From Girardia tigrina (lineage: Eukaryota): a DNA stretch of 54,926 nt. The notes under the pieces are model-generated. The model did not search any database. It was given only the letters and a program-made list of their open reading frames with translations, and was not told where the DNA came from. Each line of letters starts with the position of its first letter. Position 1 is the stretch's first letter. The position numbers and the translations under genes are program-made. Shown here one piece after another: positions 1,066-53,456 of the stretch. The stretch covers positions 1 through 54,926 of the forward strand of contig MQRK01231705.1 of NCBI GenBank assembly GCA_001938485.1, given 5' to 3'.

Positions 1066-3036
1066 AATATTTTAAAAATTAACAAAAACTTTAAAATCTA
1101 GATGTTCCTCTTATAATACATATTTTTTATGATATGTAAAAAAATATTGTCTCCATTTTTTTACAGTAATTAAATTTTTTTGTAAATAAAATGCATAATT
1201 TTAAGAAAAATCTCGTTTTTTAATATCCCAATTTTAAAATATTTATATTTTATTTTAAGAAATATTTTAATCTAACACACTTAAACAACATAATAAAAAG
1301 TAGGGATAATAGATAAGCTTAGTAGTTATATTTTTTTACTGAACATAAAACCTATCTGTATTTTACTAATAATAATCTTTTTTTTAAATAATTATAGAAT
1401 AGGTAAAATTTGAATGTAATCTAATCAAATACGAGCTAGAGAGGGCGAATTTACTCTGACCCAGAATAGGATAATTTGTTTGAGACACAGACGACTAATA
1501 TATTGATATGATCTTGCTGCATCATTAGAACTGACTGAGCTCTAATTATGATACAGGTGAACATGAATGGATACCACAAGATACAAGAATCACTGGAACA
1601 GAAGAAGCAGGATAAATATTAATTAGATGTCTTAATAAGCCTCACACACTCTCAGATGCCAATTATATTTGATAAAAAGAAAATTAATTATTTATTTATC
1701 AGGTGAATGTTTAATGATGAAAAAGGTTGATGGTGGTGATTGTTTCATTTGCATTTTGAAAAAAAACATCATATTTTTACAACCGTAAAAAATTATTATT
1801 TTCTTTTTTTGTCTTTTTTTCTAATCTGCTTTATTAAAAAAATGAAAATTAAAAAAAATATTAAAATTGATTTCTGATTTTTGATTAATTTATTTCAATT
1901 ATTTAGATTTTTTTAATAAAAATTGTCGGATGTTAAAAGTAGATAAATGTATGATTGAAAATTATTTTTGAATTATATTTAATAGAAATTAGGAATTTTA
2001 GAATTATGAGGAGTAAATAAATTAATGAGGAAATTAAATAATTACGTAAAACATAAAAAACACATGAAGTTTATAATGCTACAATCCCATAATTTTCGAA
2101 ATAGTTAAACATGAAATATATTTTAGAAGAAAAAGCTTTTTTTATGTTACAAAAGTGACGAATTTATAATGAAATAGAGAATCTATTGCAGATAAGCAAC
2201 AAGATTTTTTGTCTTGAATATGATCATTTGAGACAAGATTCAACTGTAATGGAAAATAAGAGCGAGTGGATTTCTATCTTCCATTAACTAAATAAATTAA
2301 ATAACACAAAATAATCTGGAAAAATTTATTATTTAATTAGATCAACATAAGTTTATTTCAGGATGGTTGGCATTAGTGGTTTGAAATAAATAGATTGTTC
2401 TCTTTAGCTCCAAATCAGCAATAAGTACATTTCTGTACCAGTAAAAATGTATCAACTGATATCATCAACATGAGATTTGCTGAACAAATGTCGATTCCAT
2501 GTTTAGACTGCTACTAACCATTCAAGCAGTTTGGTGGAAATTCGTCGGCGACAGTGCCAAGTGTGACGAATTTCCAGTACCGACTAAACCAGAAAACCCG
2601 ATAAATGATTAGTGCTCCGGTTGGATGCGTCGCAGCTGTTATGGAAATCGATTTTTTTGTTTTCTACTTGCGACAAAATCCGCTGACATTGACTGGTACC
2701 GTATACCTACATACTAGTTTGGAACGGTAGGAATCTATTATTTCAACCTATGGTCGACGTATAGTGTTTGCATAACGGTACATATAATAACATACATAAA
2801 AATAACATTGCCGTACTATAAACAAAAATACTCCTTGTTACAGGAAATGAAAGACTGTTTAATTAAATCAAATTCTAGATAAAAGTTACACATAAAAATT
2901 CAAATTATCGGTATGACAGTTAAAAAAAATAATCATAATAAACCGTGTCTTATGATATTTGTGAGGTAGTCAATTGATGCATAGATGGACATGGCCCAAC
3001 TGCACGTTGTCACGGGATCTGACATGGAATTCTCTC

Positions 3037-3159
3037 TTTGAATTTGACAAATTCTGACAGATTGTGTCACGTTAAGCCAACCAATTTTATCCAATACGAC
3101 ACTAATGCGATCCGAATCTGAGGGTCTCCAACGTTGTATTTCGGATAAACAACACGTCG
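3037..3159 (-). pseudogene. MRPL23: N-terminal fragment resembling mitochondrial ribosomal protein L23
   Basis: Minus frame not in the ORF track: RRVVYPKYNVGDPQIRIALVSYWIKLVGLT*HNLSEFVKFK, matching the recalled metazoan mRpL23 N-terminus pattern R.V.YP.Y..G.PQ.R......W.KLV....P...V.F; one stop. Confidence 0.65.
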
Positions 3160-3160
3160 T

Positions 3161-3217
3161 TTTCAGCACATCGCCTTTACATTTCCTCGTGCAATGGAAA
3201 CAACTGATTTTATCCAT
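3161..3217 (-). pseudogene. Fragment resembling the start of the first LIM domain of actin-binding LIM protein (abLIM/UNC-115)
   Basis: MDKISCFHCTRKCKGDVLK inside ORF 2933..3256 fits the abLIM LIM1 start I.C..C...C.G[ED]VL[KR]; truncated before the H..CF half of the finger. Confidence 0.55.
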
Positions 3218-3318
3218 TAAAAAATTCGATTGGAAATGATTTCTGGCGATAGTCATTCTCTACTTGGATTGACTAAGACTTGGATTTAATTCCATTGATT
3301 TTTTTTTAAATCAATAAA

Positions 3319-3322
<4 letters not shown>

Positions 3323-3353
<31 letters not shown>
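3323..3353. repeat. (TA)n microsatellite
   Basis: Direct reading; further (TA)n tracts near 4116, 7159, 11418, 14122, 19258-19390, 35097 and 35472. Confidence 0.95.
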
Positions 3354-3357
<4 letters not shown>

Positions 3358-3362
3358 AAAAA

Positions 3363-3400
3363 GACGCGTTTCGAGATAATAAAAATCCCATCACCAGGTC
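3363..3400 (-). ncRNA. Degenerate minimal type I hammerhead ribozyme motif
   Basis: GAC CUGGUGA U GGGAU-UUUUAUU-AUCUC GAAA CGCGUC; A6>G in the core and the 3' strand of stem I is lost. Confidence 0.55.
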
Positions 3401-4036
3401 ACAAAATGTACCAAGCAGGTATACTATATGGAAACTTTCCGAAAATAGATTTTACCTTACAATGTATATATACTGACGTTAAAATCAATTATTTTTTGAA
3501 AAACTTTGGAAGAACGAAGGAATTCAAAACAAAATGTATTTTGTCGATGTGCGATTGTTTTGCATTGGTCAACTGTGTTATTATACTGAGTGTCACCAGT
3601 GTCAAACCTGGTACAGTTGAGAGAACACAACGTTCTCTCAGATTTCCATTTGGTCAGACATTTCAGTCAAATTGCATCGATGAGATTTCGGATTGTTTTA
3701 AGTTTAATGGGAAGGCTAAAATTGAGTTGATTGTAATGATTGTGAGAAGTTTCATCTCAAAGATTAGCTTTTGGTGTGCTGTTAGTTGTCATCTTTATCA
3801 TATGTCTCCGTTACCTTGTAAAGTATGGATTGATAGAGAAAACATATCGTTTTCTCAAATGGTAATTGATAGCTGCCAATGGTTGGTTTGCGAGAATGAG
3901 ATTGATTGCATTTAGTGCATTTTTCTTAATTTTAAGGAAAAGTGAAATAAAGTTATTTTCATCCAATAATTTATTGGATAAATTTTATTTATTTTCGGAA
4001 AGTTTCCATATAGTGTACCTGCTTGGTACATTTTGT

Positions 4037-4077
4037 GACCTGATGGTGGGATTTTTATTATCTCGAAACGCGTCGTC
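4037..4077 (+). ncRNA. Minimal type I hammerhead ribozyme motif (PLE-type, palindromic stem III)
   Basis: GAC CUGAUGG U GGGAU-UUUUAUU-AUCUC GAAA CGCGUC GUC; stem I GAC/GUC, ACGCGU palindrome, GUC cleavage triplet at 4072-4074; A9>G deviation. Confidence 0.7.
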
Positions 4078-5895
4078 TTGTTTTTATCCCTATTATATAG
4101 ATTTTACCTTACAATGTATATATATATATATATACATACATTTAATATATGTATATACCCAATATATGTATATATATATATATATATATACATATATACT
4201 AAAAAAATATATGCAATCACTACATCAACAATCTAAGGAAATTGTTGAGCGATTTCTTGAGTAAATATTTTAAATTCAGATTATCAACTTCCAAATAATA
4301 TAAGTAGTTCAAATATCTAGAAAATTTAGTTTTAATTTAATAGTAATTATTATTTTTTCAATGCTATCATTAAATAAAATCCTCTTGGTCTCGATCCGCC
4401 CGATCTCCGAGAACCGGACGGTGGTAGTAGCAGCGCGCAACGGAGATTAGAAAGGGAGTTCGAATTCATCGGTTTCCTGGGCCCATTTTGTTATGATTTT
4501 ATATTCACTCGATGAGATCATTTTATTGAGTATACAGATTTCAATTATTGTTAATCGAAATGTATTTTGACTTTGTTTTAACTCAAAAGAACGAAAATCA
4601 CAATAAGTAAAATATATTATTCAATTTCAAATTTTATTGAAAGAAACCTTTTTGTAAAGAAATCACTCGATTGCGATAATTTCGAAAATAAAATCGTCCA
4701 AAATTAGTTAAGATAAATTGCAAAATGTATACGCTCGTTTACAATTCTCTCAATCGAAATAATTCGTCAATAAATCGTTCAAAAATAGCTCAGTAAATCG
4801 TAATATTTCGATATCAGTGAAGGCAAATAAAAATATCAGTGATTGACATTAAAATTTTGTTCATTTGAATTGTCTTAAGGAGATTCTGGATGAAGGGTTC
4901 GAATTTAAATTGGAAGTATAAATAATGATAACACCACATACTAAAGTAATTTAAATTCCGAACAGTCTTTATATGCAAAGGAAAAGCCAAAAAAGAAGTT
5001 ATAGTCTTTTAAAAAGAAGTTATATTCTTTTATTTGGGTGGGCCTCTCAATTGAGAACTCCGGTAGTTTTTATTTTTTTAAGTAGTTTAATTTTAACTCG
5101 AAATTTTTAATATTTCATTACTGTATGTCATTTAAAAAATTAATTTAATTAATTAATATTTTTAATAGAAAATATTTATTATTTTTAATTTAAACCAAAT
5201 ATATTTTCATAAGTAAATGTAGTAATTATTAATATTTTTTATGTTTCTTTCAAATTAAGATGCTTAGTTTTGAAGGCACAATTTCTAATTCGGTTAATGA
5301 AAATTATAAATGTATTATTTAAAAAATATGAAAATATAAAATGTTTTTACTAAAAAATAAAGTATTTATTATGAAAAGTGATTTTTCTTAGAAAATAATA
5401 TTATTTCACCCAGTCAGGATATTAATTGCACATTAACATTCATACATGCTCAACTGGGGATATCACCCTCCAAAGGGAAAAAATTTCGCTGTCGGGTGAG
5501 TGATGATCATATGTTAAATACAAAGAAAAATTTTAAATAAATAAATAATATTCTTAGTTATAACTTGATAGGGATTGAAAACACGGCAAGGAGCACTAAT
5601 TCTAGAAGACAGAGAAAAAGTAGGATAAATGAAGAATTAAAGGAGATTTTAATTTTCAGTAAACAGATTAAAAATACTCTCCTCTACCAAACATAGTGGT
5701 CAAGAATATCAATAATTATAAAATTAATGTTAAATTCATATCCGTTTAAACAGTTGCGGTTCTTCCTCATTCAATCTGAAAGCGTACCCCTAAATTTGGA
5801 AATTAAAGATTGATAAATTTTCTTACGAACATTTATAATTAACAATGTTACAATAATTTTCAGAATTATGTATATATATTTTAAATAATTTTTAA

Positions 5896-7029: not shown

Positions 7030-7157
7030 AAAATATTTAAAACAGCATTACGTTGTCCACTTTGAATGTTAATTAAAGGGTTGTGTTGTCGTATCAAAAA
7101 GGATTTACAGAACTGCCGCTCGTTATAAAGCTAATATAAAAAAGTAATATTAAAAAA

Positions 7158-7160
<3 letters not shown>
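7030..7160. repeat. Dispersed ~130-bp repeat, copy 1, ending in a (TA)n tract
   Basis: AATATTTAAAACAGC.TTACGTTGTC...CTGCCGCTCGTTATAAAGCTAATATAAA..GTAATATTAAAAAAG(TA)n; near-identical to 13996-14121. Confidence 0.85.
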
Positions 7161-7202
<42 letters not shown>

Positions 7203-8285: not shown

Positions 8286-9247
8286 ACTGTTTATTCAAAA
8301 AGCGATTACACAACTTTAGTACATAATTTTTGCTGCCATATATATTGTTTTGATCATTTTAAGATAAAAATTGTAAATATAATTTAAAAATAAAGTTAAA
8401 AATAATTTAAAACAATAATTTAAACAATTAAGTTCAATTTTACAAATTATATTGAAATAAAAATTGAATAAATGGATTATAGCAAACAAATAACGAAAAA
8501 TTTGTTAATATACGTGTATTATTTTTATTAATAAGTTTTTGAGTTGAATATGAATTTTGATCTTGCTGATAATGAAATTTGTATAAACTTGACTAACATG
8601 GATGATGTATTTTCAATAAAATTACTACAAATTAGGTCTGTTGAATTTTATATGAGTTTTTTTTAGTTCTTTTGGAGCTTATTTATTTATTAATAATTGG
8701 CATTCATTAGCATTCCAAAATAGCAAATCTAATGGTAAACATATCAAAATTAATCAAATCCTAAATGCAATCGTTAAAATGAAATTAAAATCGAAAAAAA
8801 CCCGATGCGAAGAAAACAAATTAAAAAAAAGAAAAAAAGCAAAAATTTTAGCCAAGTCAACAAACATTTTTATGAAGAATACAAAAAATCAAATAGACAG
8901 AATATCATGACGAAAATTTTGCACTGCGAACAATATCACTTTTATTTGTGATTTATTTGTAAATAAATCTTCACTGTTGAAATTTGTCTTCTATTTTAAT
9001 ACCGAAACATTATTGTATCTAATATTATCTGATTCGTCCGGCAATCCACTTAGTGTTATTTTCCACAATTAGAAATTTTCTCGATCCTAAAACAGATGGA
9101 CCTTTACCGGTTTGTAATAAATCTTTCAGACAATTTAGGAAACCCCGATTTTAAAAGACCGACGCAGAAATCAACCGACCGGAACCAATACATACCCTCA
9201 AAAATTATATCCACGTGATAAAAATTATTTATAGAAATCAGTATATA

Positions 9248-10636
9248 CAGGGTGGGCCAAAAGTAGGGCTACAGTTAACACCTAAACATTTTATCTTTAT
9301 TAGAAATTTAGACATTTATTTACATACATTATATTTACATAATAAACATTTTGCATTGAACATTTAATCTCTCAAGTGCTCAAAATGTCCACCTTCAACC
9401 TTGCAACAATCTCTATATCTGTCCAAAACACTCTGACACACAGTACGACACAAATTCCGATCTCCATCAATTTCAGTGAATGCATCTGAAATGTAATCTT
9501 TCAATTCATTCACTGTGTGGGGTTCCTCTCATAAACCTTGTTCTTGACTACACCCCAAAAAAAGAAATTCATTGGTGTCATGTCAGGTGAACGTGGTGGC
9601 TATTCAATTCAGGCCCGCCTTCCAAACCAATGCTGCGGAAAGACTTGATGAAGATACTCTCTTACAGTCTTCGCATAATGTGGAGGTACTCCATCTTGCT
9701 GGAAGTACAGTTCATCAAAGTTAGCTTTGGTTCTGAGTTGTGGTACTACCACGTCACGTAGCATTTCCAAATAATTGTCTCCAGTAACAGTTCCATCAAA
9801 GAACACGGGCCCGATAACACCTTCACTGGANNNNNNNNNNNNNNNNNNNNNNNNNNNNNNNNNNNNNNNNNNNNNNNNNNNNNNNNNNNNNNNNNNNNNN
9901 NNNNNNNNNNNNNNNNNNNNNNNNNNNNNNNNNNNNNNNNNNNNNNNNNNNNNNNNNNNNNNNNNNNNNNNNNNNNNNNNNNNNNNNNNNNNNNNNNNNN
10001 NNNNNNNNNNNNNNNNNNNNNNNNNNNNNNNNNNNNNNNNNNNNNNNNNNNNNNNNNNNNNNNNNNNNNNNNNNNNNNNNNNNNNNNNNNNNNNNNNNNN
10101 NNNNNNNNNNNNNNNNNNNNNNNNNNNNNNNNNNNNNNNNNNNNNNNNNNNNNNNNNNNNNNNNNNNNNNNNNNNNNNNNNNNNNNNNNNNNNNNNNNNN
10201 NNNNNNNNNNNNNNNNNNNNNNNNNNNNNNNNNNNNNNNNNNNNNNNNNNNNNNNNNNNNNNNNNNNNNNNNNNNNNNNNNNNNNNNNNNNNNNNNNNNN
10301 NNNNNNNNNNNNNNNNNNNNNNNNNNNNNNNNNNNNNNNNNNNNNNNNNNNNNNNNNNNNNNNNNNNNNNNNNNNNNNNNNNNNNNNNNNNNNNNNNNNN
10401 NNNNNNNNNNNNNNNNNNNNNNNNNNNNNNNNNNNNNNNNNNNNNNNNNNNNNNNNNNNNNNNNNNNNNNNNNNNNNNNNNNNNNNNNNNNNNNNNNNNN
10501 NNNNNNNNNNNNNNNNNNNNNNNNNTGTAACATAGAATAAGAGTTCAGTAATATTTTCTATAATTTATATCTAAACGTGATTGTGAAGGCGAAACAGATA
10601 ATGAAGCAACTGTAACCCTACTTTTGGCCCACCCTG
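9248..10636 (-). mobile_element. Tc1/mariner DD41D (rosa-type) transposon, defective, interior in a gap
   Basis: TIRs CAGGGTGGGCCAAAAGTAGGG.TACAGTT at both ends, TA flanks; QQDGVPPH...PPRSPDMTPMNFFFWG with 41 residues between the 2nd D and the 3rd catalytic position (D>N here); two stops. Confidence 0.85.
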
Positions 10637-10995
10637 TATATTTGTATTTTGTTGTATGTTTAACTTCGATTAAAACATTGTGAGAGGTACTTGACTTGCC
10701 AAGCAGACTCTGAAGTTACATTTTGGTCTTAGATGTTTTAAAAATTTGATTTTGTTCCGCCCGACACTCAGGTTGCCCAGAGAATCGGACGGAGGTAACA
10801 GAGTTGCGCAGGAAACCTTTCTCGATGTGCTGGGTCCATTTTAATTGGATCCGACTAATGGGATTATTCATATTGGGATTCTCCAATCTCATAGAAATGG
10901 CAATTAATGATCCTTTGATATTGGCCAATCGATTGATCATTTAGTGAGGAAGCGCAAATGAAATATCGAAATCTTGACACAAAAATGTCTCGTAT

Positions 10996-11100
10996 TTGCA
11001 AGAGTAGCAGACACAGTTGTTCGAGGGCTGACTATTGCATTTCTTCAGCACTACCTCGAAGCCGATTTAATAACAAATAAGGCAACTCGACTTCCTCCAT
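10996..11100 (-). pseudogene. HECTD1: N-terminal fragment resembling E3 ubiquitin ligase HECTD1
   Basis: ATG-led MEEVELPYLLLNRLRGSAEEMQ*SALEQLCLLLLQ versus recalled HECTD1 start M.DVD...LL.WL..G...ERDMQLIALEQLCMLLL; TAG at the Leu position; truncated after 35 codons. Confidence 0.6.
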
Positions 11101-11414
11101 TAATATTTCTTGTTAATATCAATTTGTCGAAATCGAATTCTCCAAAAGAAAAAATAAGGCAAATGATTCGATTTTATTTTCAAATTTTCATCTTTAATCT
11201 CATTTAATCTAATAAAACAAATTCATCTTTTTCACATAATCCAATTAATTTCTTAATAAAAAAATTATTTTAATAAAAATAGTTTTTTTCCAATCTTTTC
11301 ACATAAAGCCACAAATTCATTTTTAAATAAAAACACAATAAGAATCACACAAAAAAAGTTTTGTTTTTCTAGTTTTTTAAATGCAAATGAGGAAAGCGCA
11401 GGATCCATTCAATA

Positions 11415-11450
<36 letters not shown>

Positions 11451-11656
11451 TAATTAATTTGTAATAACAATAAATAAAGATAGTTGAATCCCGAACAGAT
11501 TTCATTTTTGAATTAGCAAGTTCAATAGATGAAGTATAAAACAACAAAAGATGCGTTTTGCAAGGTTTTTAAGGAATATGATAGCCGATCAAATATTTAT
11601 ATTACTAGGCAGTAAAAATAAGTTTGTTCATAGTAATTTATGGTTTAGAAACATTA

Positions 11657-12957
11657 CAGAATGATTCATAAGTCTGTTCATCCCCCTTATTTTTTTGAGA
11701 AAAAGATCAAATTTTTAAAAAAAAAACATTTATTACGTAGAACTTTCAATACTTAGTTGAATGTCCTTTCATGTCCTTTATTATTTTTAATCGCCTAGGC
11801 ATGGATTCAACAAGACTTTTACAATAGTCTTTTGATAGTTCGTACCATATTTTTTGAACAGCCACCCACAGCTGTTCTGACGATGTGCACCTTATCGTCT
11901 GTAATTTCCTTCTTGAAAATCCCCATACATTTTCGATAGGATTTGCGTCTGGTGAATCGCCTGGCCATGGTAAAGGGTCGACTTCCTTCTTTTTAAAGAA
12001 ATTAAATGTCGACAGTACACGGTGTGGTGGTGCAAGATCTTGCTGATAAATAAATTGTTGTTTTGAAAATACCAAGCGCTTTCCAATAATATCAATGTCA
12101 TGTATTATAGTTTCTTGGTACATTTGAGCATTCATTGAACCTTCTACTTTTCTAAGAAGACCTACCCCGTTTGCCGAAAAGCACCCCCAGACATAAACTT
12201 TGGCTCCGTGGCTCTTGGTTTCATGAATGTTTCCGAGTTTGAGCCTTTCATTTCTAGTTCGTCTGATCCAACGTCTACCACGATGATTATTCATTCATCG
12301 CTAAATATAACAGAATACCAAGTTTCTTTATCCCAATTTTGATATAATGAAGCCCACTGCATTCTTCTTTGTTTCTGTTTAGCGGTAAGGAAAGGTTCCT
12401 TTACAGCTTAGAAAACCCTTATTCCATATTTCTGTAATATCTTTTCGACTGTCGACTTACTTATGGCTATTGAGGAAGAAGAATTAAATATCCTGGTAAT
12501 ATTTAACGTGGAAATATCATTGTTTAAACGACTTATGCGTTTAATCACTCTTTCTGATCTGGCGCTTAGTTTATGAGGTCTGCCTCCACGTGGCTGATCT
12601 TTCACTTCTCCTGTTTTTAAATACTTCACCCATATTTTTTTCATTCCGCGTTTTGAAATATTTATATTATATCTTGTAAATAATTCGACCTTTATTTGAT
12701 TCCATGTACTTCCTGAATTTTTAAGCGCAACAATCATTCCAAGCTCAAATTCACTAAATACTCTTAACATTTAATTTATCTAAAATTTAAAAAAATAAGT
12801 CATTAATGAAAATTGCAATATTTAACATATAAATTCAAATGTATAGCATAAAAAACTATTTATAAACAAATATTCAAAATTAATATGACGTCAAATTTTT
12901 AGTTAGAAAATAAATAATCAAAATATGAGGGGGTGAACAGACTTATGAATCATACTG
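11657..12957 (-). mobile_element. Full-length Tc1 (DD34E) transposon with disrupted transposase
   Basis: TIRs CAG.ATGATTCATAAGTCTGTTCA.CCCCCT, TA flanks; ORFs 12408..12770 (HTH, GRP) and 11746..12294 (VWGC, QQD..P.H, WP.DSPD.NPIEN; 34-residue spacing); stop at 12408 and frameshift near 12294. Confidence 0.92.
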
Positions 12958-13714
12958 TACAAATATCAATTTGACCTCTATGACTCAGACACATGAACGA
13001 TCGGTCGAATATCTTAATATCGCCGTTTTTCTGATATGAATAGGGATCATTTTGTTGAAAAATTGTTTTTCGTTAATAGGAAATCATTTAATTTCGATAA
13101 CTCAAATCGCATGAATCATAGAAAGTCTCAGCAACATAATTTTTAAGTAAAAAGTTATTTTGTATCTTTGATTAAAATTAAAAAGATTTAAGCATATTTT
13201 TAAAGTAAAGAAATAAGTTATTGTTGAAATCCATTATCAATAATCTTTTAAATAACATGAAAGAGTTGTGGAAAAAATATTTTATTGAAATGTGCCATTA
13301 TATTGAAAGCTCGAACTCTTGCAGCCAAAGCCGTGTGAGAGGATCAGAAAAGTTTATATTTTTCAAATGATTTCTACTCGATACAAAGTTTATGATTCAC
13401 TATCCTGTGTGTCAATGCTGAGTATTATTTGTAATACACAGTTATCCCTCACAGTACGGGGATGCTTATTTTAAATTGGAGAGACATATGGTCATCTCAA
13501 AATCCGGATTAGTGAGCATTAACAATCAAGTCGATCGAATAAGGTTCTTGATCATTGGTTACATTGAAAAAATATAATCTTTTATATTTGAAAGGATGAA
13601 TTTTCTGTTTTACAGAAGAGCTTTGAATCACACTATGAGATGCATTTCTGTAAATCATTAGTGTTGTGACCTACATGTACACTGTGCTTTGTTATTTTTT
13701 GTTTTTATTCATAC

Positions 13715-13784: not shown

Positions 13785-13995
13785 CTAAATAACCAAAACA
13801 ATAAATAAAAATATGTTAAAACTAAAAATAAATACATAAATAATAATTATTTTTAGAATGTCTGGTCAATTTGAAATTTTTGAAAATTTAATTTTTTAAC
13901 ATCTAAAATATTTAAAGTCGAGAATCTAAGTAAATGCAGTGTACAAAATTTAAATCTAAGTTAAAATAAAAACAAGTGTTTGGATAAAAATTTTA

Positions 13996-14120
13996 ATATT
14001 TAAAACAGCGTTACGTTGTCAATTTTGAATATTAATTAATGGGTTGTATTGTCGTATCAAAAAGGATTTACTGAACTGCCGCTCGTTATAAAGCTAATAT
14101 AAAGAAGTAATATTAAAAAA

Positions 14121-14121
<1 letters not shown>
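13996..14121. repeat. Dispersed ~130-bp repeat, copy 2, ending in a (TA)n tract
   Basis: Same orientation and near-identical to 7030-7160. Confidence 0.85.
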
Positions 14122-14163
<42 letters not shown>

Positions 14164-15957: not shown

Positions 15958-16000
15958 ATTGCATTGTTAAAAAAATGTTAAAAATGCATTGTTAAAAGGG

Positions 16001-17160
16001 ACTAACAATGAATCAAATTTAAAAATTATATCACGATCTCCTTTAGTATATAAACGATACGTTGAAGATATATTTCTAGTTTTTAAAAATCAGGCTGATG
16101 TACTTCCATTTTTAAATTTCATGAATTCGTTACATTCAAATGTTACTTTTACAGATGAAAATGAAAGGAATGGAGTCTTACCTTTTCTGGATCTTTTGGT
16201 TGAAAGAAAATCTCTTAGTTACGAGACTGGAATTTATAGGAAGCAAACTGATACATGTTTAAATACTTCACCAGATAGTTTTTGTGAATTTAAGTATAAA
16301 AGAAACATGATTAAAGGTTTAAGTTATCGCTCCTAGTCGTTGTCTTCCACTTTTGTTAAATCTGTAGAAAATGTTAATAAACTAAGTTCGTTGTTAAATA
16401 AGAATGGTTATTCTAAATCTTTTCTAGAAAAATTAATAAAGGAAACAGTAGATAAAATACTTTTGAAAGATTTTTCGAAAAATCAGAGTTTGGCTTCTCC
16501 TGATGGATCTAAGAAAGAAATCGATGGATCGTTAGATATGAATAATATGCATAAATATTGTTTAATTGTACCTTATTCTGAAAGATTTAAAACTTTAAAA
16601 AACTTTAAAAGCAACTAACAATGAATTAAATTTAAAAATTATATCGCGATCTCATAAAATTCAAAATATGTTCAGTAATAAATCTATTACTCCTTTAACA
16701 CTGTGTTCTGATATTGTTTATGAATATAAATGTAATGGGTGCGATGCCACATACATTGGAGAGACTGCCCGTCATCTCTGTAAACGAATTCAAGAACATG
16801 GTCGAAAAGAGAGTAAGAGTAATATTGCAGAACATAGGAAAAATGTAAATGTGATGCTAATTTTGATAATTTCAAAATTCTGTGTAAGCATTTTGACAGT
16901 TATTGGTAGAGAATGTCGTGTGAAGCATTGTTAATTAGGTCACGTTGCCCTAAAATCAATGTTCAATCGGCAGTCTCAACCAGCTTATTGAGAATTTTTG
17001 ATTAGCATGATTTCATGCAATCGATTGCATAATCATCATTTTTGTATTTATATACAGGTGAATTGATTATTAATTAGTGACCTGAAGATGACGGTAGATC
17101 CGTCGAAATATTTTGTCTTAAAATATATTTTTTAATGGATCAGTGTTGTTATTAAAAGAA
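16001..17160 (+). mobile_element. 5'-truncated Penelope-like retroelement (RT C-terminal half, GIY-YIG endonuclease, pLTR)
   Basis: YKRYVEDIF (YVDD variant), LPFLDLLV, IYRK, NGY; IVYEYKCNGCDATYIGETARHLCKRIQEH GIY-YIG motif; multiple stops and frameshifts; hammerhead downstream. Confidence 0.9.
17079..17117 (+). ncRNA. Minimal type I hammerhead ribozyme in the PLE pLTR
   Basis: GAC CUGAAGA U GACGG-UAGAU-CCGUC GAAA UAUUUU GUC; intact CUGANGA/GAAA core, 5-bp stem II, near-palindromic stem III. Confidence 0.75.
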
Positions 17161-19589: not shown

Positions 19590-20578
19590 ATGGCGACCAC
19601 GTTCAGTTATTAGAAGAATCTGGTTCCCGATACATACAATGGAGAAGATAATCTTGAAGAATTCATGGAAGAATGCGGAAGATTTTTTTAAGTTTCCGGC
19701 ACCGACGCCAATATCAAAGGAATTATGGTGAAGGCTTTTATTTCAAAGGATTTAATTCCAATTTATGAGAAAGTGGATTCTAATATCGTGGAGTTTGATG
19801 AAAGGTTCAGGGCAGCATTTGCCAAACCTTCATCCTTATTCAAGATTTCATGAATTTATATTCATATGAAAAAGGATCAAATGGAGCAAATTTATATTTC
19901 GACAAAATTGGGAAAATGGTAAGAAAATTATTGTCCCATAAATGGGATGAAAAAGAATTGATGGCCTATTTCTTGGTACATTGTACGAGAAATGCCACGA
20001 TTAAACGAGAAGTGACTCTACGGGATGTCAACGACATGGATCAGATCAAAGATGTTATTCGAAAAATTGACAATGTCGAAAAGGAAGAATCAATGCATAT
20101 ATCAGCAATGAATTGTAAAGAAACTTATGCAAAAGTCATTCAAAAGCGTCAACAGTATTCAAATTCACAGATTGATAAATCATCAATGGAAAAGACAAAA
20201 TGGAGTCATCAAAACAAACCACAGCCGGGAAATTTAGTCATATGTTGGAGCTGTCAGAAGCAAGAGCATATCAGCAGGAATTGTCCAAACAAAAGCGTCC
20301 AGACCAAATGTCATGCATGTCAAGAACATGGGCATATTCGAAGAGAGTGCCCAAACATCAAATGCAGCCACTGTAAGAAAAATGGTCACGTTAGTTTTCA
20401 GTGCTGGCAAAAACGGGAAGAAAACTATATGAAGCAGAGATACTATCATGGAATGAAGGCTGACGGATCGAGGAAGAGCATTGCGGCATTGGATGAAAAT
20501 CGTAATGAAATCGAGGACTTTGATGACGAACACGAAGAAAGAGATCAGACCCCAAACTCTCAGGCTCCATCAAGGTGA
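19590..20578 (+). pseudogene. gag: gag with three CCHC zinc knuckles
   Basis: CWSCQKQEHISRNC, CHACQEHGHIRREC, CSHCKKNGHVSFQC; the upstream part MATTFSY*KNLVPDTYNGEDNLEEF has a stop and frameshifts. Confidence 0.85.
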
Positions 20579-23500
20579 GAAGTGATGGGAGCCATCTGTT
20601 AAAATGTAAGAAATTTTTGGAACCATTTATTTGTAATTTAACTAATTGTAATTGTAATAATAGTAATATTTTATTTGATAATTTTAATAGTAATATTTAT
20701 TTGAATGATAATTTTATTAATAATTTTTATTTGAATGAAAAAAGTAATAAGAATGATGATAATGTGAATAATTTTTTTCAAAAGAGAAACGAATTTTGTG
20801 AAAGGGAGCATAATAAAACATTTGTAAATGGGTTATGTAGATTGTTCGATAAGGGTATTAAGAATAAAATTAAAAAAGAATTATGTCATTACGACTCAAT
20901 AAAAACTAATTGCGAAAATGACCGATTATGTAATGTGTCTGGTTGTTGTATGTCAAATGTTAAAAGTTCAACAAATATAGGGGTATTGTGTAATAATAAA
21001 AAAAATAACTGCAGAATATTGTGTAATTTTAAAATAAAATATGACAAACTTGATGGACGACCCCGAATGATAGTTAAGTGTAATGATCTGTATTTTTCTT
21101 GTTTACTGAATACAGGCGCGCGAATAAATGTTATAGTAATAGAGGAAATTAATAGGTTAGGAATAATTCCGGAAAAATATAGTAATGAAAGTATTATTTG
21201 TGCAAATGGAAGTGCTTTAAGAATTGTCTCGTTTTAATTGTAAGAATTTTTTCGAATTGTCTTTCTAAAGATAGAAATAGGTGAAATTTATAAGATAATA
21301 AAATTTAATATTGCTGAAAAAGTATCACCATCTGTTATATGCGGTATGGAATTTTTAAATGCTTTTAAAATTCACATAAAAATAGAGAATGAACAATTAA
21401 ATAATAAAGGATTTAATTTTGATGATAGCAACTGTAGTAAAATATGCATTATCAGTGCTAAATTTGGATTGCAGATACCTCATAATATTAGGGTGAAAAA
21501 TATTCTTGATTTATTGAAAATAAAATTAGACTCTCCTTTATATGAAATAGTGAAGAAACATTTAGATGTATTTATGGCACATAAATGGGACGTGGGTTGT
21601 ATAAAACTTTTGAAACATAAAATTATAACAAAAGGCGATCCGATTTTAATGAAACCGAGAAGGCAACCAGCCAATTTAGAAGATAAAATTGAAGATCTGA
21701 TAAAGAATCTGGAGGATAATAAGATTATCAAACGATGCGATTCGCCCTGGAACACACCCATGGTTGAGTGTGGAAAAAAGACAAACAAGAAATACGACTA
21801 TGATTGGATTTTAGACAGTTAAATAAAGTAACAGAAAGACCAGCATACCCTATGCCTAACATTGAGGAAATATTGGATTCTCTTAACGGAGCTCGTGTTT
21901 TTAGCACAATCGATTTTGGAAATGCCTATTACCAAGTGGAGTTAGATGAAGATTCTAAACTGAAAACGGCGTTTTCTACAAAAAACGGTCAGTTCTGTTT
22001 TAATCGCATGCCATTCGGAATAGCTGCTGCCCAAGCAACTTTTCAAAGATTAATGAATATTGTTTTAGGGGATATGCTTTGGAAGGAAGCTTTGGTTTAT
22101 TTAGATGACATTCTTGTTTTATCAAAGACTCTAGACGAGCATATTTTTAAATTAAATAAATTGTTTGATAAAATTAAATGCGCAGGTCTTAAAATAAACC
22201 CAGAGAAATTTCATTTTTAAAACAGGAAACAAAATTTTTAGGTCACATGATTGACGAAAAAGGAGTTAGAACCGATCCAGACAAGTTAGAATCCATCAAA
22301 ACATTTGAAAGACCGAAATGTATTAAAAAATTAAGAAGTTTTCTGGGTCTTTGTAACTATTATCGGAAATTTATAAAAAACTATTCAAGTCTTGCAAGGA
22401 ATCTAGAAACTCTCTGTGGCAGCAACAAGGAAAAACTCTTTTGGAACGATGAATGTGAAAAATCATTTTGTCAACTGAAGGAAGCTCTAACGAAAACACC
22501 AGTGCAAGCATATCCTGATTTCAATAAGGATTTCATTTTAACTACAGATGCAAGTCACAATACGATTGGTGCAGTTTTATCGCAGTTAGATGACAAAGGG
22601 AATGAAAAAGTAATTGCCTATGGATCACATGCTATGAGTAAACATGAAATTGGATACTGCATAACAAGGAAGGAGTTGTTAGCAATTTATTTTTTCACAC
22701 AACACTTTAAGCACTATCTATATGGCAGACAGTTTACTTTAAGAACGGATCATAAAGCAATAACTTTCATACTGACAACGAAGAAACCTATAACATCCCA
22801 GTTTCAAACGTGGTTAAACTTTTTAAGTAGTTTAGATATGAAATTAGAGTATAGAAAGGGATTACATCATTCAAATGCAGATACATTATCAAGGAGAGAT
22901 TGTGATATGTGCTGTCAATGTCAAATGCAACACGATGAGTCTAAAAAAGGAAAACTGAAGACCAAAGTTTAAGCATCACTTTCTGAATCAGATGTTTTCA
23001 AATGGTAACATGATAACAAAGAGATTGAGGAGATTAAAAGACGGATAAATAATTATGAAATAGATGAATATACGTTAACCCAAGGAGTGGTAATGACACA
23101 TGATAGAAAAATATGGATTCGGCTAATAATAGATATCAATTTATTCAATATATTCATTCAATGTTGTGCCATGCTGGTATAGAAAAATTTTTCAATTACA
23201 TAAAAGACACTTATGCAATGGAAAATCGTAAAGAAAAGATCAAGGAAATAATAGAAACTTGTGAAGTATGTCAAAAAAGGAAAGTATTAGCAACAAGGAC
23301 AAAGGAAGTTATAATCAAACAGAAATGCGATTATCCATTCGAATCAATTTTTATAGATTTCTGTGGACCGTTAAAGGCCAATAAATATGGAAAAAAGTAT
23401 ATATTAGGTATAATTGACCAATTTAGCAGATATATTTCACTATCTGCAGATGCTAAACAAGATGAAGAGACTACATCTAGAACTATTTTGAACAATTGGA

Positions 23501-24100
23501 TATTGAAATTCGGTGCGCCAAGAATTATTCATGTTGTTCGTGGAAATACATTTGAATCAAAATTAATTAGAATCATGTGTGAAAAATTTCATATCAAATT
23601 AGAGTTTTCAAGTCCATACCACCATAATACAAATGGTATAATTGAAAGGCAATTTAGGACTATTCGGGATTATATCAACACGATAAGTAAGACAGATAAA
23701 AGTAGGAATTGGGTTGATTTACGTCCAGAAATTGAATTTTGTTTAAATGCTACTGTGCAAAAATCATTACAAATGAGTCCAGCAGAAATAATTTTCGGTT
23801 TTAAAATCAATAGAGAATGGAGTGATACAAATAGAGCTGGTAATAGAGAAGAACGGAAACAAACAGCTATCAAAAATCAAAATTTAATTACTTATCAAAA
23901 TTACAATCGTGAAAATAGGTTTTTCGAAATAGATGACAAAGTGTTAGTAAAAAGAGAAGGTCGTGGGAAAGATGAACACAGGTATGAAGGTCCTTATCGA
24001 GTCATTAAAAAAATCATGATCGCAGTTATGAATTGGAAAACGACATCGGTAAAAAAAATATACGCAATATAGAATGGTTAAGGTCTTTTATGAAAGGGGG
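20575..24100 (+). pseudogene. pol: pol (protease, RT, RNase H, integrase), fragmented
   Basis: LLNTGA (DTGA variant), MPFG, YLDD, TDAS, RKELLA, TDH, NADTLSR, H..LCH...C..C, IDF, IIERQFR, GPY in ORFs 20575-24072. Confidence 0.92.
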
Positions 24101-26829: not shown

Positions 26830-29045
26830 GTTCTAGATACGCAATTCTAGATAAGCCACACGTTTCTTCTTGAAGCTTCCAACATTTAAACTTTGTTCAA
26901 TTTCATTACTGAGATTGATCAGTCTTTCTCACTTCCATTAAAAAATGAAACTTGTCACTTTCTTTCGTGTGTTTCTCCAGCACTGCAGATTTTCTGCGGA
27001 AGGGTGCAATGTCCATTTCTATCTGTGGTTACTCATTTCGGTACTTTTTCAGTAGTGTTATAATAACTTTCTCTGTGTTTTTCCATCCTAGTTCTGCCTC
27101 CCTCATAGTTCGCTGAAGCTTGCGGTCAAGAGTTACAAGATCTCTCCGAATACTTTTATGCAATTCTTTTTCGGCTTCAATTTCTAACTAGATTTCTTAT
27201 ATCCTTTTTTTAGATATAAGACTACACAATTGTAATCGGATCCACAGTCATGAAAAGGCTTAGATTGTGCATCTTTGCTCTTGTTCATGTTTTCTGAAAG
27301 CAAAAGAAATTAATCCAGTAGTTCTCTCCTCTTCGAGTTCTGGGTGGGTCTAGCTGGTGCTTTTCCACTCATTATGGAGAAAAAAGGAGTTTACTACCTT
27401 CATGTCTTTCTCTTCAGCTAGTAATACTAACCTTTTCCCATTATCTGACATGTGTGAACTGTATGCATACTTTCCGACGCTGGGAACTGGCTTTCTCGTC
27501 AGAGTATATGCGGTAATTGAAGTCTCATTCAACCACCAACATGCACCCGGACTGTTTAGTTTCTGCTTTTCTTTTTCAACTATGGTGTTTAGAGAGTCAT
27601 CGAATGGAGTTTACTCACTGTCACTGTATCCAAAGTCAGTAGGAGAGTAAATTCATACGATAATTATTCTGAAGGAAATGATTTTCGCTTTGAAAATTCG
27701 ATCCGAGAATGCCTCAAACTCGATATCACATTTAGGTTGTCTAGTTAATTGTAGTGCCCTACTTATTTTGTTGTTATTATGCCGTGGAGAAATTTGGAGA
27801 AACAAATTTGCCGAGGAAAAAGATAATAGTTTTGTTGAAAAAATCCATTGAAAAATAAACATAAAATATGTTGTTATTCAGAGACACAATGAAGAATGAT
27901 AATCATAATAGATCTTTAAAAGAAAATAAAAAATAATAAAAAAGAGAAGAAATATAAATAAAACCAAAAAAAACCGAATATCCGAAATTATATATTGTTA
28001 ATTATATCGTTAAGTTGACGATAATTAAAAAATTAGCTGAAGGAAAAAAATCAATAAAATAAAATTGACAATATAAAAAAAAGATAATTAATAACCATGA
28101 ATCGTGAGTTATAAGTCTTAAGATAACGAATAAATTTGCTGTTCTTTTACTGAGAAAATAATATTTCTATATTCCCTAATCGCCTGAAATATCCGGATCT
28201 CGGCTCTCATGTTCATATACGAATATTCGACGTTCATCAATCATCAATTAACCGACATACTATAGAAGGAAATTGTCGTCTCACCATATAATCAAATATT
28301 TTTAAGAAGCAATTTGAACATTACAATTCCCGAATCGTCTGAAATATTCGGATCTCGGCTCTCATATTCATATACGAATATCCGACGTTCCTCAATCATC
28401 AATTAACCGGCATACAATAGAAAGAAATTGTCGTCTCACCATATAATCAAATATTTTGAAGAGGCAATTTGAAGTAACGTTACTTTATCCATTTTTCCCA
28501 CGGAACTCATTTCGTTTTACTGTGATCTATTTTAATTACTTCTTTTTAGTCCTTCCGTTTGTGTTTGATAATTAAGAGTTTTGATTATTTTATCTTTTTA
28601 TTCATTGCATTTGTTTCTTTTGTAACAACAATTTCAAGTTCACAACAACTGAACTTTACTTTGCTCTTACATTAATAAATCAACTCCTCTTTCCCTAATT
28701 TGTGCCATTTGTGGCCAACTGTTGTAAAGGGTCCACTTTTTGTACACTTCATCTACATTTAGCTTTTCTAGAGCATCAGTAACACTCAAGACTTTCTGAT
28801 GATCAAACCTTCAAACGTTCCATATACAGACCTTCTTCAAACCCAACCGCAAATCCCGGCAAGGGGAACATTGGTTGGGTCCCCACTTAGCCTGAGATCC
28901 TATTATTTTGCGAGCGAACCCAGTATTCTCTGTGCTTTCTATTTGTTTAGTAGTATCTAGTAGATTAAGGTGATTACTAATGGATTGCTAGTCCTAGCTG
29001 AGAGTACCCCTTCTCGAATTTAGTTGGGTATCCAGGATCGGCATG
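26830..29045 (-). mobile_element. Old, fragmented RTE-type LINE (5' UTR and APE endonuclease), interrupted about 27700-28500
   Basis: GLKKVCIWNV* near 28815-28845; VGKYAY..HMSDNGKRLV...VVNSFF in ORF 27350..27532; 5' UTR shares GATCCTGG and CTAGCAATCC with the younger RTE. Confidence 0.65.
28171..28473. repeat. Two-unit tandem repeat, period 155 bp
   Basis: ATTCCC.AATCG.CTGAAATAT.CGGATCTCGGCTCTCAT...GCAATTTGAA starting at 28171 and 28326. Confidence 0.9.
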
Positions 29046-29108: not shown

Positions 29109-32100
29109 TGGGCCTCCCATCTCTTTCGAATGATATTGAGCCTCTAGGCTCTTTAGAGGGTCCACCCAAACTAAAGAATCACTAGCAGCAACCCGATAGG
29201 CCTCCTACGGGGTCGGATAGTTTCGGTCTCCGAGATCTTTTCGACTTCCCTGAGAGAAACGACCACCCATGGGTTGTATAGCCATGGTTCTGCATACCTT
29301 TGGCTGTATTCGTGGACTTCGTACAGCTGCGAAAGGGACATCTGAACTCCCCCCTTGCAGTTAGATCTGCAATCCTAAAAGTCAGATGTGTTTCTTCAGT
29401 ACCTATCGCTTCTTCCACCGCCGTCGAGATAGTCGGGGGGTCCGTCACGGATTGAATCTGGTTGCCTGAGGTTTTCTACTACTCTTTCTTCTGTGGTTGT
29501 ACTGGTTTGCGCTGGTGTCATTGTCGGTTCTCCAATTTCTTCTGTCTCCTCCAATTTATGATCCTGGTAGAGGTGCCTGGTCAGCCACCCCTTCGTTTTG
29601 TACGACTTTTTGCATAGTGTACATNNNNNNNNNNNNNNNNNNNNNNNNNNNNNNNNNNNNNNNNNNNNNNNNNNNNNNNNNNNNNNNNNNNNNNNNNNNN
29701 NNNNNNNNNNNNNNNNNNNNNNNNNNNNNNNNNNNNNNNNNNNNNNNNNNNNNNNNNNNNNNNNNNNNNNNNNNNNNNNNNNNNNNNNNNNNNNNNNNNN
29801 NNNNNNNNNNNNNNNNNNNNNNNNNNNNNNNNNNNNNNNNNNNNNNNNNNNNNNNNNNNNNNNNNNNNNNNNNNNNNNNNNNNNNNNNNNNNNNNNNNNN
29901 NNNNNNNNNNNNNNNNNNNNNNNNNNNNNNNNNNNNNNNNNNNNNNNNNNNNNNNNNNNNNNNNNNNNNNNNNNNNNNNNNNNNNNNNNNNNNNNNNNNN
30001 NNNNNNNNNNNNNNNNNNNNNNNNNNNNNNNNNNNNNNNNNNNNNNNNNNNNNNNNNNNNNNNNNNNNNNNNNNNNNNNNNNNNNNNNNNNNNNNNNNNN
30101 NNNNNNNNNNNNNNNNNNNNNNNNNNNNNNNNNNNNNNNNNNNNNNNNNNNNNNNNNNNNNNNNNNNNNNNNNNNNNNNNNNNNNNNNNNNNNNNNNNNN
30201 NNNNNNNNNNNNNNNNNNNNNNNNNNNNNNNNNNNNNNNNNNNNNNNNNNNNNNNNNNNNNNNNNNNNNNNNNNNNNNNNNNNNNNNNNNNNNNNNNNNN
30301 NNNNNNNNNNNNNNNNNNNNNNNNNNNNNNNNNNNNNNNNNNNNNNNNNNNNNNNNNNNNNNNNNNNNNNNNNNNNNNNNNNNNNNNNNNNNNNNNNNNN
30401 NNNNNNNNNNNNNNNNNNNNNNNNNNNNNNNNNNNNNNNNNNNNNNNNNNNNNNNNNNNNNNNNNNNNNNNNNNNNNNNNNNNNNNNNNNNNNNNNNNNN
30501 NNNNNNNNNNNNNNNNNNNNNNNNNNACCCACTCAATACCGGCCTCAAGCTGGTGCCCAGCAGTAAGGATCCGAGTATCTCCGTTTAGGTTCAAAACTTT
30601 GGTTTTACCGATGTTAATTTTGAGACCTAAATCTAAAAAGGATGCTTTTAAAATGTTCAAATTATTTATCAAGTTGTTCCAGTCCGTGTCAATGAGGCAG
30701 AGATCGTCAGCATAGGCTAGTCTGTTGATCTCAAGGAAGCTTCCATCTTCATGTTTCATCATCACTCCTCCAGAGAGACTGTTCAATATTGCTCTTTTCA
30801 CAACCGTGTCGAATACAATATTGAACAGGAGCGGCCCTAAAACACAACCTTGACGCATTCCTTTATCCATGTTGAAGGTTTCATCACCTATAGAGCCTTT
30901 GAATCCCTCATGGAAAGCTTTGATGATCTCTAACATTCGCCCCTTATCCCTAGTCGCTTTAAACAGCTCCAGAGAGACTCCCGGGGGACACTGTCGAATG
31001 CCTTTTCCAAGTCGATAAAGATAACATACATAAGAACATTAGTTCTTGTATCGCGCTTCCTCCTGCAATTTCCGCAAGATACTTATAGCCATCTGAATTC
31101 CTCTTCCCGGCCGGAATCCATACTGCCACTCGTCTAGTATCGCTTCGGTGATAGGAGTGATTCGGTTCGCGATGATTCTGGCTAGAATCTTTCCTCCTAC
31201 ATCTAAAAGAAAAATGCCTCGGTAGTTATTTGGATCTTTTCTAGAGCCTTTCCTTTTGAAAAGAACCACCACTTTGGCCTCTCTCCAACTAGATGGAAAT
31301 GCCTCTAATCCGTTCCATATGTTCCTAAAGCACTCCTCCAATAGGGTTAGTATGTTCACACCCCCCCCACTTATAGATTTCAGGGATCAATCCATCAGAT
31401 CCCGCGGCTGTCTCACTCTTCAACTGCTTCACTGCCTCTGTTATTTCTTCTCTTGTCGGAGGAGAATCCAAATCATCGAGATTTAGAGTGTCTCCAGCGA
31501 TATCAGTCCGTTCCTTCTGCTCTAATGGAGCCCTAAAAAGATTATTAAAGTGGTTGGTCAGCTCCTTGTTCCCAATAGGGTTCGAGGGAGTACACAGGGT
31601 GTTCTCCTTCCATTGTGATTTACAGAGGATACGTAGTTCCGTAGTGAGCTCCTTCAGTTTTCCTTCTCCATTATTGTTTAGTATCTTCTCGATTTGTTCG
31701 CCTAGAGCCTCGACTCTTTCACGTTTCCATCTTCTGATATTCCTCTAGGGAAGTATTCTGCTGGATTTCCACCTGGAAAAAGTGTCGTTGTTTCTATTCC
31801 TCACAAACTCAGTGCGTCTCGCCCATTTTTCTCCAATAAGTATCTTTAACTCATCTAGGTGACCATGTAGCCACTTATGATTCGGAGGAGTTCGCTTTGA
31901 TCTTGTGCTTGCTCCTCGTACCACATCGCAGATCTGTTGATTGGTGGATTTCCAATCGGTACCTAAAAATTGAACATGTGGAAATGTTTCAATTATATTT
32001 TCTTTTTTCTTCATGATTGCTTCTGGATCTGGCATTTTGTGTTTGCGCGTGTTTCTGTCGTTTCTTAGCCTCTTCGGTCTTTTTCCTTCTTCTCTGACTC

Positions 32101-33060
32101 TGACAGTTATAACTACCAGATCGTGGTCGAAGCCACAATCAAATCCTGGGTAGCTTCGGATGTCCGTGTACCTATTAGCTCGATTCCTTTCAATAAGAAA
32201 GATATCAAGTAATGATCTCCTAGATGTTGCTGGGTGAGTCCAGCTCGTTCTCTGGCTAAGTTTTTTCCTGTAAAATGTGTTTTCAACACGCAGTCCACAT
32301 GATATNNNNNNNNNNNNNNNNNNNNNNNNNNNNNNNNNNNNNNNNNNNNNNNNNNNNNNNNNNNNNNNNNNNNNNNNNNNNNNNNNNNNNNTCTTCAACC
32401 TACAATTAAAGTCTCCTCCAATTAGTAGTTCCATTTTCTTTTCTCTAGCGAATTTCTTCTCCTTCTCGATCTCCTCCTGCAACTTCTGATAAAAATTTTC
32501 TTTTTCCTCATCTGTATACCCGCAGTCCGTCGAGGCATACACTCCGATTAGTATAATTGATTTCCTGATGTACCTGCAAATAAAAAGCCGGTCATTAATT
32601 GGTCTAAAATCCAGTTTGGTCGGGTCATCTTCTCTGATCATCAGCGCAACTCCTCTTTCTCTTCGTGTTCCAATTGCACAGCCACTGTGGAGAATTCACC
32701 ATCCGTCGTATTCAGTAGTTTCATTGCCCCAGCAGTGCGTTTCGGTCAGGATACACGCCTCAGTTTTCGTTTTTTTCAGAGCCTCATTTATTGAAAGTAT
32801 TTTCTCGTCGTTTAGTCCTCGCACATTCTAGGTTCCCACCTTCAATCCTCCGCGTTTGGTCCCTGTGTCGCCGGAACCGATCGGGAGCTTAATGACTTCG
32901 GGTCCTTTTAGATCCCTTGTTTGGGTTTTGAAAGCGTTCTTCATATCCACAGACAGGATTGCTAGCCCTGTAAGTTTCGTTACCACATTCGCCTAGAGAC
33001 GGACTTTAACCCATCTAGTTTCCCAGGATCCACCACGGGGAGGAGGGTAACACAGATCCC
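29109..33060 (-). mobile_element. Full-length RTE-clade non-LTR retrotransposon with 12-bp target site duplication
   Basis: TSD AACACACATATG at 29097-29108 and 33061-33072; single ORF from ATG 32944: APE (GT*NVRG, GDFN, NTFY, DH), RT (NYRGI.LL, QYGFR, FIDLEKAFD, GMRQGC.L.P.LF, YADD) and two C-terminal C2H2 fingers; several stops and frameshifts. Confidence 0.92.
32979..33060 (-). ncRNA. HDV-like self-cleaving ribozyme at the RTE 5' end
   Basis: P1 GGGAUCU/GGAUCCU with G1.U; P2 GUUACC/GGUAAC; P3 UCC/GGU around L3 UCCCCGU; GG for P1.1; P4 CUAGA...UCUAG; J4/2 GCGAA with the catalytic C; G1 coincides with the TSD boundary. Confidence 0.85.
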
Positions 33061-33757
33061 AACACACATATGCATTTTCTAACACTACACGTATTAGTAC
33101 ACTTATTAACATACAGATTATTTTGAATCACCCGAGTAACTCTCAACAAAACGAAATCGATTTTTCCCATTATTTTCGAGTACCAAATTGAAAATAACTC
33201 ATAATGGTGATTTTTAAAATGAAAATCACATTTATTTTTTTAAAATAATTATCGTTAACAAATTTAAATTAAATTCAGCAAAATCCGTAACAAAATCAAT
33301 CATTTATTTAATTTACTTTTTTAATTAATTATTTTATTTTATTATTAATAAATTTCCAAACTGGTAAAATGTTCGGTCAATCTTAATTTTCAACTCAAGT
33401 AAATTCATAAAAATAGTTTAATACACATAACACGCAAATATTCTAAAGGTTATAAGAAAGAAAACATAAACGTTACAATATAGTTTAGTCTCATAAAAAA
33501 TGCTTTATAAATATGATTGGATGAATCTACTTGCACACTTAATAATGGTTTATGATGGTTTATTTATAAGGCTTATATAATAATCATTTCATAATTGGTG
33601 TAAAAATTATTAAATATTTATTATTATTATTATAGACTTTAACATAAAAGTGAATATGTTTTCCTTGAATATTTTTTATATAGTAAAAATCAAACTATTT
33701 CTACACAAAATAGTAATTCTAATGTATTCAATGTTCAAGGATTCTAGTACAAAGATG

Positions 33758-39645: not shown

Positions 39646-39879
39646 GGTGAGATACTGTTGCATATTTTCCTACGACCCGCTAACCCCCAATCTTCGCCAT
39701 TTCGCGACTGCCACATCAAGCCCGCTCTTGTACCAACACCACGAATCAGTCAAAGGAGGGTTTCCATTTCCAATATTTTATAATTAGATATTACATATTT
39801 CATAATTGAAATTACAGTTCTTTATAATCTTTGTAAATTCACATTCACATTTATATTTAAAATTCAAAAATCAGTATTT

Positions 39880-53353: not shown

Positions 53354-53456
53354 TATTTGACTACAAATTTATAATTCGTAATATCTCAAATTTATTCCAA
53401 TTTGAAAATAACATTATTGGGCAAATTTTACCAATGTATTTTCGTAAAATGTTTTT

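Follow-up and report, generated by a model that had tools for sequence, protein, structure and literature searches.

A probable dead, 3′-truncated 5′ end of a class II HECT ligase gene joined to a dispersed repeat in Girardia tigrina

The window analysed here is the whole 54,926-nucleotide stretch of Girardia tigrina contig MQRK01231705.1. It is AT-rich, contains assembly gaps and is dense in transposon relics, among which Pfam recognizes Tc1/mariner transposases, LTR-type reverse transcriptase and integrase, LINE reverse transcriptase and a GIY-YIG frame. The locus of interest is read on the minus strand, from about 11230 down to 10642, between two transposons. Its features and those around it are as follows, listed from high to low coordinates.

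11655..12959, minus strand: Tc1-type transposon with 31-base inverted repeats (DDE_3, E 1.4e-6), a self-contained neighbour and not the end of the ligase unit.
11418..11452, no strand: upstream (TA)n microsatellite, one of the window's nine period-2 arrays and probably outside the unit.
11101..11230, minus strand: AT-rich upstream sequence (5′ UTR, intron end or promoter side), copied with the gene start (P0002 match).
10996..11100, minus strand: codons 1–35 of a class II HECT E3 ligase, HECTD1/TRIP12-type armadillo region (match to P0004 residues 1–35).
11034–11032, minus strand: TAG stop, codon 23 (codon view).
10995, minus strand: one extra base in a run of A, a frameshift read earlier as a gene junction (codon view; P0001 is open here).
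Near 10988, minus strand: junction of deletion 1, 18 codons (alignment to P0004).
10956..10994, minus strand: "COG5-like" motif, equal to P0004 residues 36–37 joined to 56–66 across deletion 1 (alignment).
10956/10955, minus strand: junction of deletion 2, 15 codons (tblastn gap).
10857..10955, minus strand: equivalent of P0004 residues 82–114, after deletion 2 (tblastn match to P0004 58–114 with a 15-residue gap).
10943–10941, minus strand: TAA stop within the block of residues 82–114.
10746..10846, no strand: tail X, a dispersed repeat of about 100 bases, common to P0001 and P0002 down to 10752 (nhmmer, tail comparison).
10642..10751, minus strand: sequence beyond X, differing among the window, P0001 and P0002 below 10752 (tail comparison).
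9243..10641, minus strand: Tc1/mariner-type element at the 3′ side of the locus, with an assembly gap (9831–10525) inside it (inverted repeats).
4385..4495, no strand: second, diverged copy of tail X, with no ligase sequence found beside it (nhmmer; no tblastn match to P0004 there).

The element at 9243–10641 is bounded by 34-base inverted repeats that are 97% complementary and gives a weak DDE_3 match (E 0.03). Beyond this insertion, GC-richer sequence resumes at 9000–9242 (minus strand) and may continue the locus; its three minus frames have no Pfam match.

The minus-strand sequence 11100–10857 aligns in order to a single protein, P0004; within the retained blocks, 61 of 81 residues are the same. 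P0004 is an intact N-terminus of the HECTD1/TRIP12 class, 141 residues long. Its residues 1–35 correspond to 11100–10996 and its residues 58–114 to 10982–10857 (tblastn, E 8e-22 for both blocks), and the identity of 71% over the 35-codon stretch is far beyond chance. The 35-codon frame itself, running on the minus strand from the ATG at 11100 to 10996 with a TAG at codon 23, is exactly as the first-pass annotation had described it. A phmmer search with the frame 10665–10997 against 1.84 billion proteins returned five matches at E≤0.001, including P0001 (E 2e-38), P0002 (E 1e-36) and P0004 (E 7e-9). P0003 and P0005 were dropped as relatives since they are repeat-rich and of low identity (25% and 34%, respectively); a Pfam scan identifies P0003 as an Ig-like repeat protein.

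The window frames alone have no Pfam match and, thus, the link to the ligase family runs through P0004. This protein matches PF25579, the TRIP12-like repeat region of Pfam, with an E of 2e-4, below the curated cut-off, and aligns with human TRIP12 chains over residues 10–86 without large gaps (E 0.001). Its two best structural neighbours in the Atlas both carry PF25579 (TM 0.72 and 0.67). An N-terminus of the HECTD1/TRIP12 class is therefore established through P0004 for what had been called a HECTD1-like start; no HECTD1 sequence was returned by the protein, PDB or longer-relative searches. A HECTD1 orthologue would carry SUN and MIB-HERC2 domains downstream, past the 141 residues of P0004. 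The start Met lies nine residues before the domain, which we take to favour HECTD1 over TRIP12 to a moderate degree. A search for longer relatives of P0004 scored none of 410 candidates, which is weak evidence as proteins of more than 2000 residues lay outside it.

Other searches at the locus gave little. Pfam, run on 12 frames of the 11100–10642 locus and of 2933–3295, produced chance-level matches only (3 of the 12 frames), and the PDB, searched with the window frames, yielded a designed repeat protein and chance matches only. None of 67 candidates scored in a word-index search with the first frame over protein lengths of 119–2000; both P0001 and P0004 fall within this range and were missed, so the search is lossy. 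A bacterial or archaeal relative was rejected: one of 47 pattern matches passed, 23 residues in a Rhizobium bin, and was judged to be chance. Phage DNA had no match to the locus.

According to a published account (PMC3673628), the HECTD1 and TRIP12/Ufd4 families both belong to the class II HECT E3 ligases. The armadillo-type N-terminal region common to both is shown here through P0004. Unlike these ligases, the window copy keeps 81 of the first 114 codons and has no HECT or other downstream domain; it is damaged by two stops and one frameshift, the homology ends near 10857 and the open frame never reaches the HECT domain. The locus is thus very probably the dead, 3′-truncated 5′ end of one class II HECT ligase gene, present as at least three copies of a rearranged unit. 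The window copy makes no ligase and most likely does nothing.

Immediately after the first 35 codons, YETFLCQDFDI is indeed read from 10994 in another frame, as previously noted. From this frame change, a multi-gene mosaic had been proposed, in which a HECTD1 start is joined at 10996 to part of COG5 and then to pieces of other genes. The frame change at 10995 is present, but it is a one-base insertion private to the window copy, and P0001 reads straight across in one frame, so that no gene junction lies at 10996. The motif and the next 33 codons are colinear with P0004, the same protein to which the first 35 codons align. The likeness to the COG5 N-terminus is confined to a few residues compared by eye, which belong to the ligase, and the databases lend it no support: no Pfam family was found on the motif-bearing frame at E≤1 or on 10860–10994 at E≤5, and COG5 was absent from the Pfam scan of all five phmmer matches drawn from the 1.84 billion proteins. 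Of the approximately 250 bp described as coding-like and lacking an assignment, the 138 bases from 10994 to 10857 belong to the same ligase gene. An assignment is lacking just for about 10846–10642, of which the first 100 or so bases are repeat X. A turn into unrelated sequence does exist, and the tail beyond it may be a coding relic, but the switch lies near 10846 instead of 10996. Colinearity with a single gene, which had been named as the observation that would speak against a fusion, holds for 11100–10857 with two internal deletions, although not below about 10846. The COG5 part being already refuted, the mosaic as a whole is now scarcely credible.

P0001 and P0002 lack the same two pieces as the window copy and end in the same 35-codon tail. 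These common deletions and the common tail indicate that the three are distinct copies of one deleted ancestor. Of 37 codons checked, 3 must differ between P0002 and P0001, which marks them as distinct copies, and P0002 has a frameshift of its own. The two tails are identical (35 of 35 residues), compared to 29 of 35 for the window and P0001. In a profile search of proteins of 68–247 residues, P0001, P0002 and P0004 were the only ones found among 57 candidates. Over the 81 residues, private changes number nine plus codon 23 in the window copy (two of them stops) and one plus codon 23 in P0001, a pattern that would fit a window copy decaying without selection. At 10 of the 81 sites, P0001 and the window stand together against P0004, which may thus be a relative of the true source. 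No publication on this family was found by title or abstract start, within partial literature coverage.

The three sequences could instead be one old pseudogene, seen as alleles or orthologues in different samples. P0001 and P0002 do come from short contigs (642 and 679 bases) that offer no context, and alternative splicing of a single transcribed locus could explain part of their divergent continuations. However, past a common point each of the three continues into a sequence of its own, and P0001 and P0002, for all the identity of their tails, are separated by a frameshift and by several codon differences. We regard a single locus as rather doubtful.

P0001 has an open frame of 124 residues that neither deletion disrupts, and three sequences make up its cluster. 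A copy of this type might be a young chimeric gene whose expressed product, an armadillo fragment of 124 residues ending in a new tail, may act, for example, as a decoy of the ligase, with the window holding its dead paralogue. The 10 changes that set the copies apart from P0004 are mostly conservative, which agrees with this proposal, although they may only mean that P0004 comes from a related species. Protein searches, moreover, favour open frames; P0002 carries a frameshift and the window copy is dead; parts of the TRIP12-aligned region are removed by the deletions; and the best score of an Atlas feature search is 0.83 for P0001 compared to 0.95 for P0004. On balance, a young gene seems very unlikely.

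Below about 10846 there is no alignment to P0004, a comparison limited to the first 141 residues of the parent. The similarity of tail X to a second site in the window begins where the ligase similarity ends: nhmmer aligns X to 4385–4495 with 16.6 bits (E 3.4e-4), a score reached by none of 100 shuffles (best 6.8) and far above the at most 5.3 bits of four control stretches of the locus. A Smith-Waterman comparison of X with the masked window is weak, with 2 of 100 shuffles reaching its best score and the copy at 4385 scoring below that best. The locus, as judged from these alignments, appears to contain one real junction, that of the ligase piece to repeat X; X could in principle derive from further down the same parent locus.

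X folds here as a GC-rich hairpin (z −2.8), whereas the second copy does not (z +1.7), and a conserved hairpin was rejected since 196 of 200 shuffles fold as well as that copy. As to structured RNA, ribozymes or tRNA, none of five Rfam matches (E≤1) falls in X, and ARAGORN found 0 genes. In the best plus-strand frame, 6 of the 17 codons that differ between the two X copies are synonymous; the mirror minus frame gives 5 of 16, and the two remaining plus frames give 1 of 14 and 2 of 16. This hints weakly at a coding origin of X on the plus strand, opposite in sense to the ligase. BLASTP gave no alignment between the two X peptides, and Pfam, PDB and plasmid searches with them returned nothing named. 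The plus strand of 4385–4495 holds a 45-residue open stretch with no library match. Past X, the three minus frames of 10645–10760 have no Pfam match, and the divergence point after 10752 marks a splice donor or else the place where the copied unit stops.

Compared to P0004, the window copy is short of 18 codons (54 bases, deletion 1) and 15 codons (45 bases, deletion 2). Both lost stretches lie inside the continuous P0004–TRIP12 alignment, which makes them old coding sequence as opposed to introns. Neither deletion disturbs the reading frame, an outcome with a chance of 1 in 9. This may point to an RNA route, in which cryptic GT..AG splicing of the exitron type would have removed two exon-internal pieces from a parent transcript, X would have been joined by splicing or by a template switch of reverse transcriptase, and retroposition and amplification would have followed. 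Of Arabidopsis exitrons, 45.8% are likewise multiples of three, according to PMC4484396. Deletion 2 begins with Val, which makes GT certain, and ends with Gln, which gives AG if the codon was CAG (estimated probability 0.23); it is among the only 8 of 324 placements of 45 bases that are GT..AG-compatible, in a test made after the junctions had been seen and on the P0004 protein, not on parental DNA. That one deletion fits GT..AG hints at an RNA intermediate. Deletion 1, in contrast, as it stands has a probability of 0 of GT-compatibility with P0004. It can end at AG, a join after the first codon base explains the Thr at the junction with no substitution, and it can be read as a 45-base GT..AG piece on the assumption that a further three codons went in a separate event.

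The window also contains LINEs, and all three copies diverge at one point where P0001 continues Gln-Val-Ile, which would be compatible with a splice donor. Against an RNA route, a one-base microhomology would explain deletion 2 equally well, and the marks of retroposition are missing from the locus: no poly(A) tract is visible in its sequence, and no target-site duplication was found, the longest direct repeat being 7 bases, a length reached by 94% of 488 random pairs. The RNA route is, in our estimate, possible but somewhat short of an even case. A fuller version, in which the unit is a retroposed, twice cryptically spliced 5′ ligase transcript that was joined to a repeat and then spread as a small mobile family, at least one member of which keeps an open frame, so that exitron-type splicing errors became fixed and multiplied in the genome, is improbable.

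Copying at the DNA level that involved template switches or repair deletions, in the manner of transposon-associated capture of gene fragments, is favoured over the RNA route and stands at about an even chance. At least 130 bases upstream of the ATG came along with the copy; residues 6–94 of P0002 match from 11230 downward in one frame, with 58% identity over 89 residues, although the true 5′ end of the unit was not located. The lack of a target-site duplication and of poly(A) also speaks for this route, as do the best reading of X, which runs antisense to the ligase, and the many transposons of the window. Counting against DNA-level copying, no inverted-repeat pair or other terminus brackets the unit within 8500–13100. 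Some route other than these two is unlikely.

Both routes would yield an identical end product, a dead fragment. By whichever route, the upstream region and the first approximately 114 codons would have been copied to a new place, the two pieces would have been lost in that copy and X joined on, the rearranged unit would then have been copied again, and the window copy would have decayed. As the deletions and the join to X are common to all copies, they would predate the later copying.

Several known systems resemble parts of this arrangement. Pack-TIRs and Pack-MULEs are described, in PMC8277862, as gene pieces copied into DNA transposons by template switching, and the same text documents such switching at microhomologies for gene capture by animal DNA transposons. 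The locus is similar in its short captured gene piece, its junction to other sequence, its several copies and its transposon-rich surroundings, and a one-base microhomology is possible at deletion 2 at the codon level. It differs in that no terminal inverted repeats bracket the unit in 8500–13100, where the two clear pairs belong to the flanking elements; a carrier that is larger or has decayed may exist.

Helitrons are marked by a 3′ hairpin followed closely by CTRR, a 5′ TC and the absence of a target duplication. A 5′ gene piece with upstream DNA and a GC-rich hairpin near the common 3′ end of the window copy recall capture by such elements, but no CTRR follows the hairpin at the distance usual for Helitrons, and the second X copy shows no significant hairpin. 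The in-frame loss of exon-internal coding pieces is exitron-like, with one of the two deletions fitting GT..AG; an exitron in a retrocopy would, however, need an extra step for the other deletion, and retrocopy hallmarks were not found at the locus. Compared to a processed pseudogene, the locus has neither a poly(A) remnant nor a target-site duplication, both of which can decay in an old copy. The locus would resemble transposon-associated gene-fragment capture or a truncated retrocopy, yet over the region covered it fails the tested defining features of Pack-TIRs and of processed pseudogenes.

The architecture of the locus had also been said to match that of 2933–3295, giving a second independent mosaic. 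Neither claim is upheld: nhmmer finds no similarity between the two loci, no tool supports a second mosaic, and 2933–3295 has no Pfam or PDB identification. A (TA)n array upstream of both loci was not counted as evidence, the window having nine such arrays. At 2933–3295 (minus strand) lies a coding-like frame, and GC-richer sequence continues down to about 2400. A LIM domain is not established there, as the likeness to the start of such a domain covers 14 residues with an E of 0.66 and ranks below a BIR-domain chain and a chance peptide.

A better parallel than 2933–3295 is the relic of the 5′ part of a SET/NAP-family gene. This frameshifted sequence lies at 39190–39790 (plus strand; Pfam NAP, E 4e-17) and among solved structures is closest to human SET, ungapped over 100 residues (E 2e-25), a likeness indicative of an animal. 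Near 39612 it turns into unrelated coding-like sequence that has no Pfam match at E<0.05.

Other observations concern the repeats and mobile elements of the window. Two 101-base inverted repeats (3350–3450 and 3987–4087), 93% complementary and lying between (TA)n arrays, make 3350–4087 a probable non-autonomous DNA transposon. A 167-base repeat ending in (TA)n occurs at 7032–7198 and 13995–14161 with 95% identity, and a 155-base tandem pair at 28171–28473. The frames at 15971–16934 (plus strand) end in a GIY-YIG match (E 4.5e-4) and presumably resemble a Penelope-like element. A frameshifted LTR-type retroelement with reverse transcriptase and integrase matches spans 19802–24072 (plus strand). 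At 52148–53938 (minus strand), a mariner transposase frame of 354 residues is free of stops and is accompanied by a 500-base tandem partial duplicate (95% identity). An HDV-like ribozyme match (RF00094, 33.3 bits, E 0.46, against a gathering score of 50; also RF02682) at 32979–33062 (minus strand) lies just upstream of the LINE frames at about 29180–32700. Its position fits that of the 5′ ribozymes described for R2-type elements in PMC3774820.

As it stands, the locus is a decayed gene fragment typical of transposon-rich genomes, and a two-gene fusion is absent. With a second truncated 5′ gene copy, the SET/NAP relic, in the same window, the origin of fragments of this kind could be surveyed across the genome. 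That the unit is a retroposed transcript and, together with this, that the genome may routinely make 5′-gene chimeras, counting the SET relic and possibly 2933–3295, is an unlikely combination. If the parental DNA has GT..AG at both lost pieces, the family would preserve, in datable form, exon-internal splicing that had entered the genome through retroposition.
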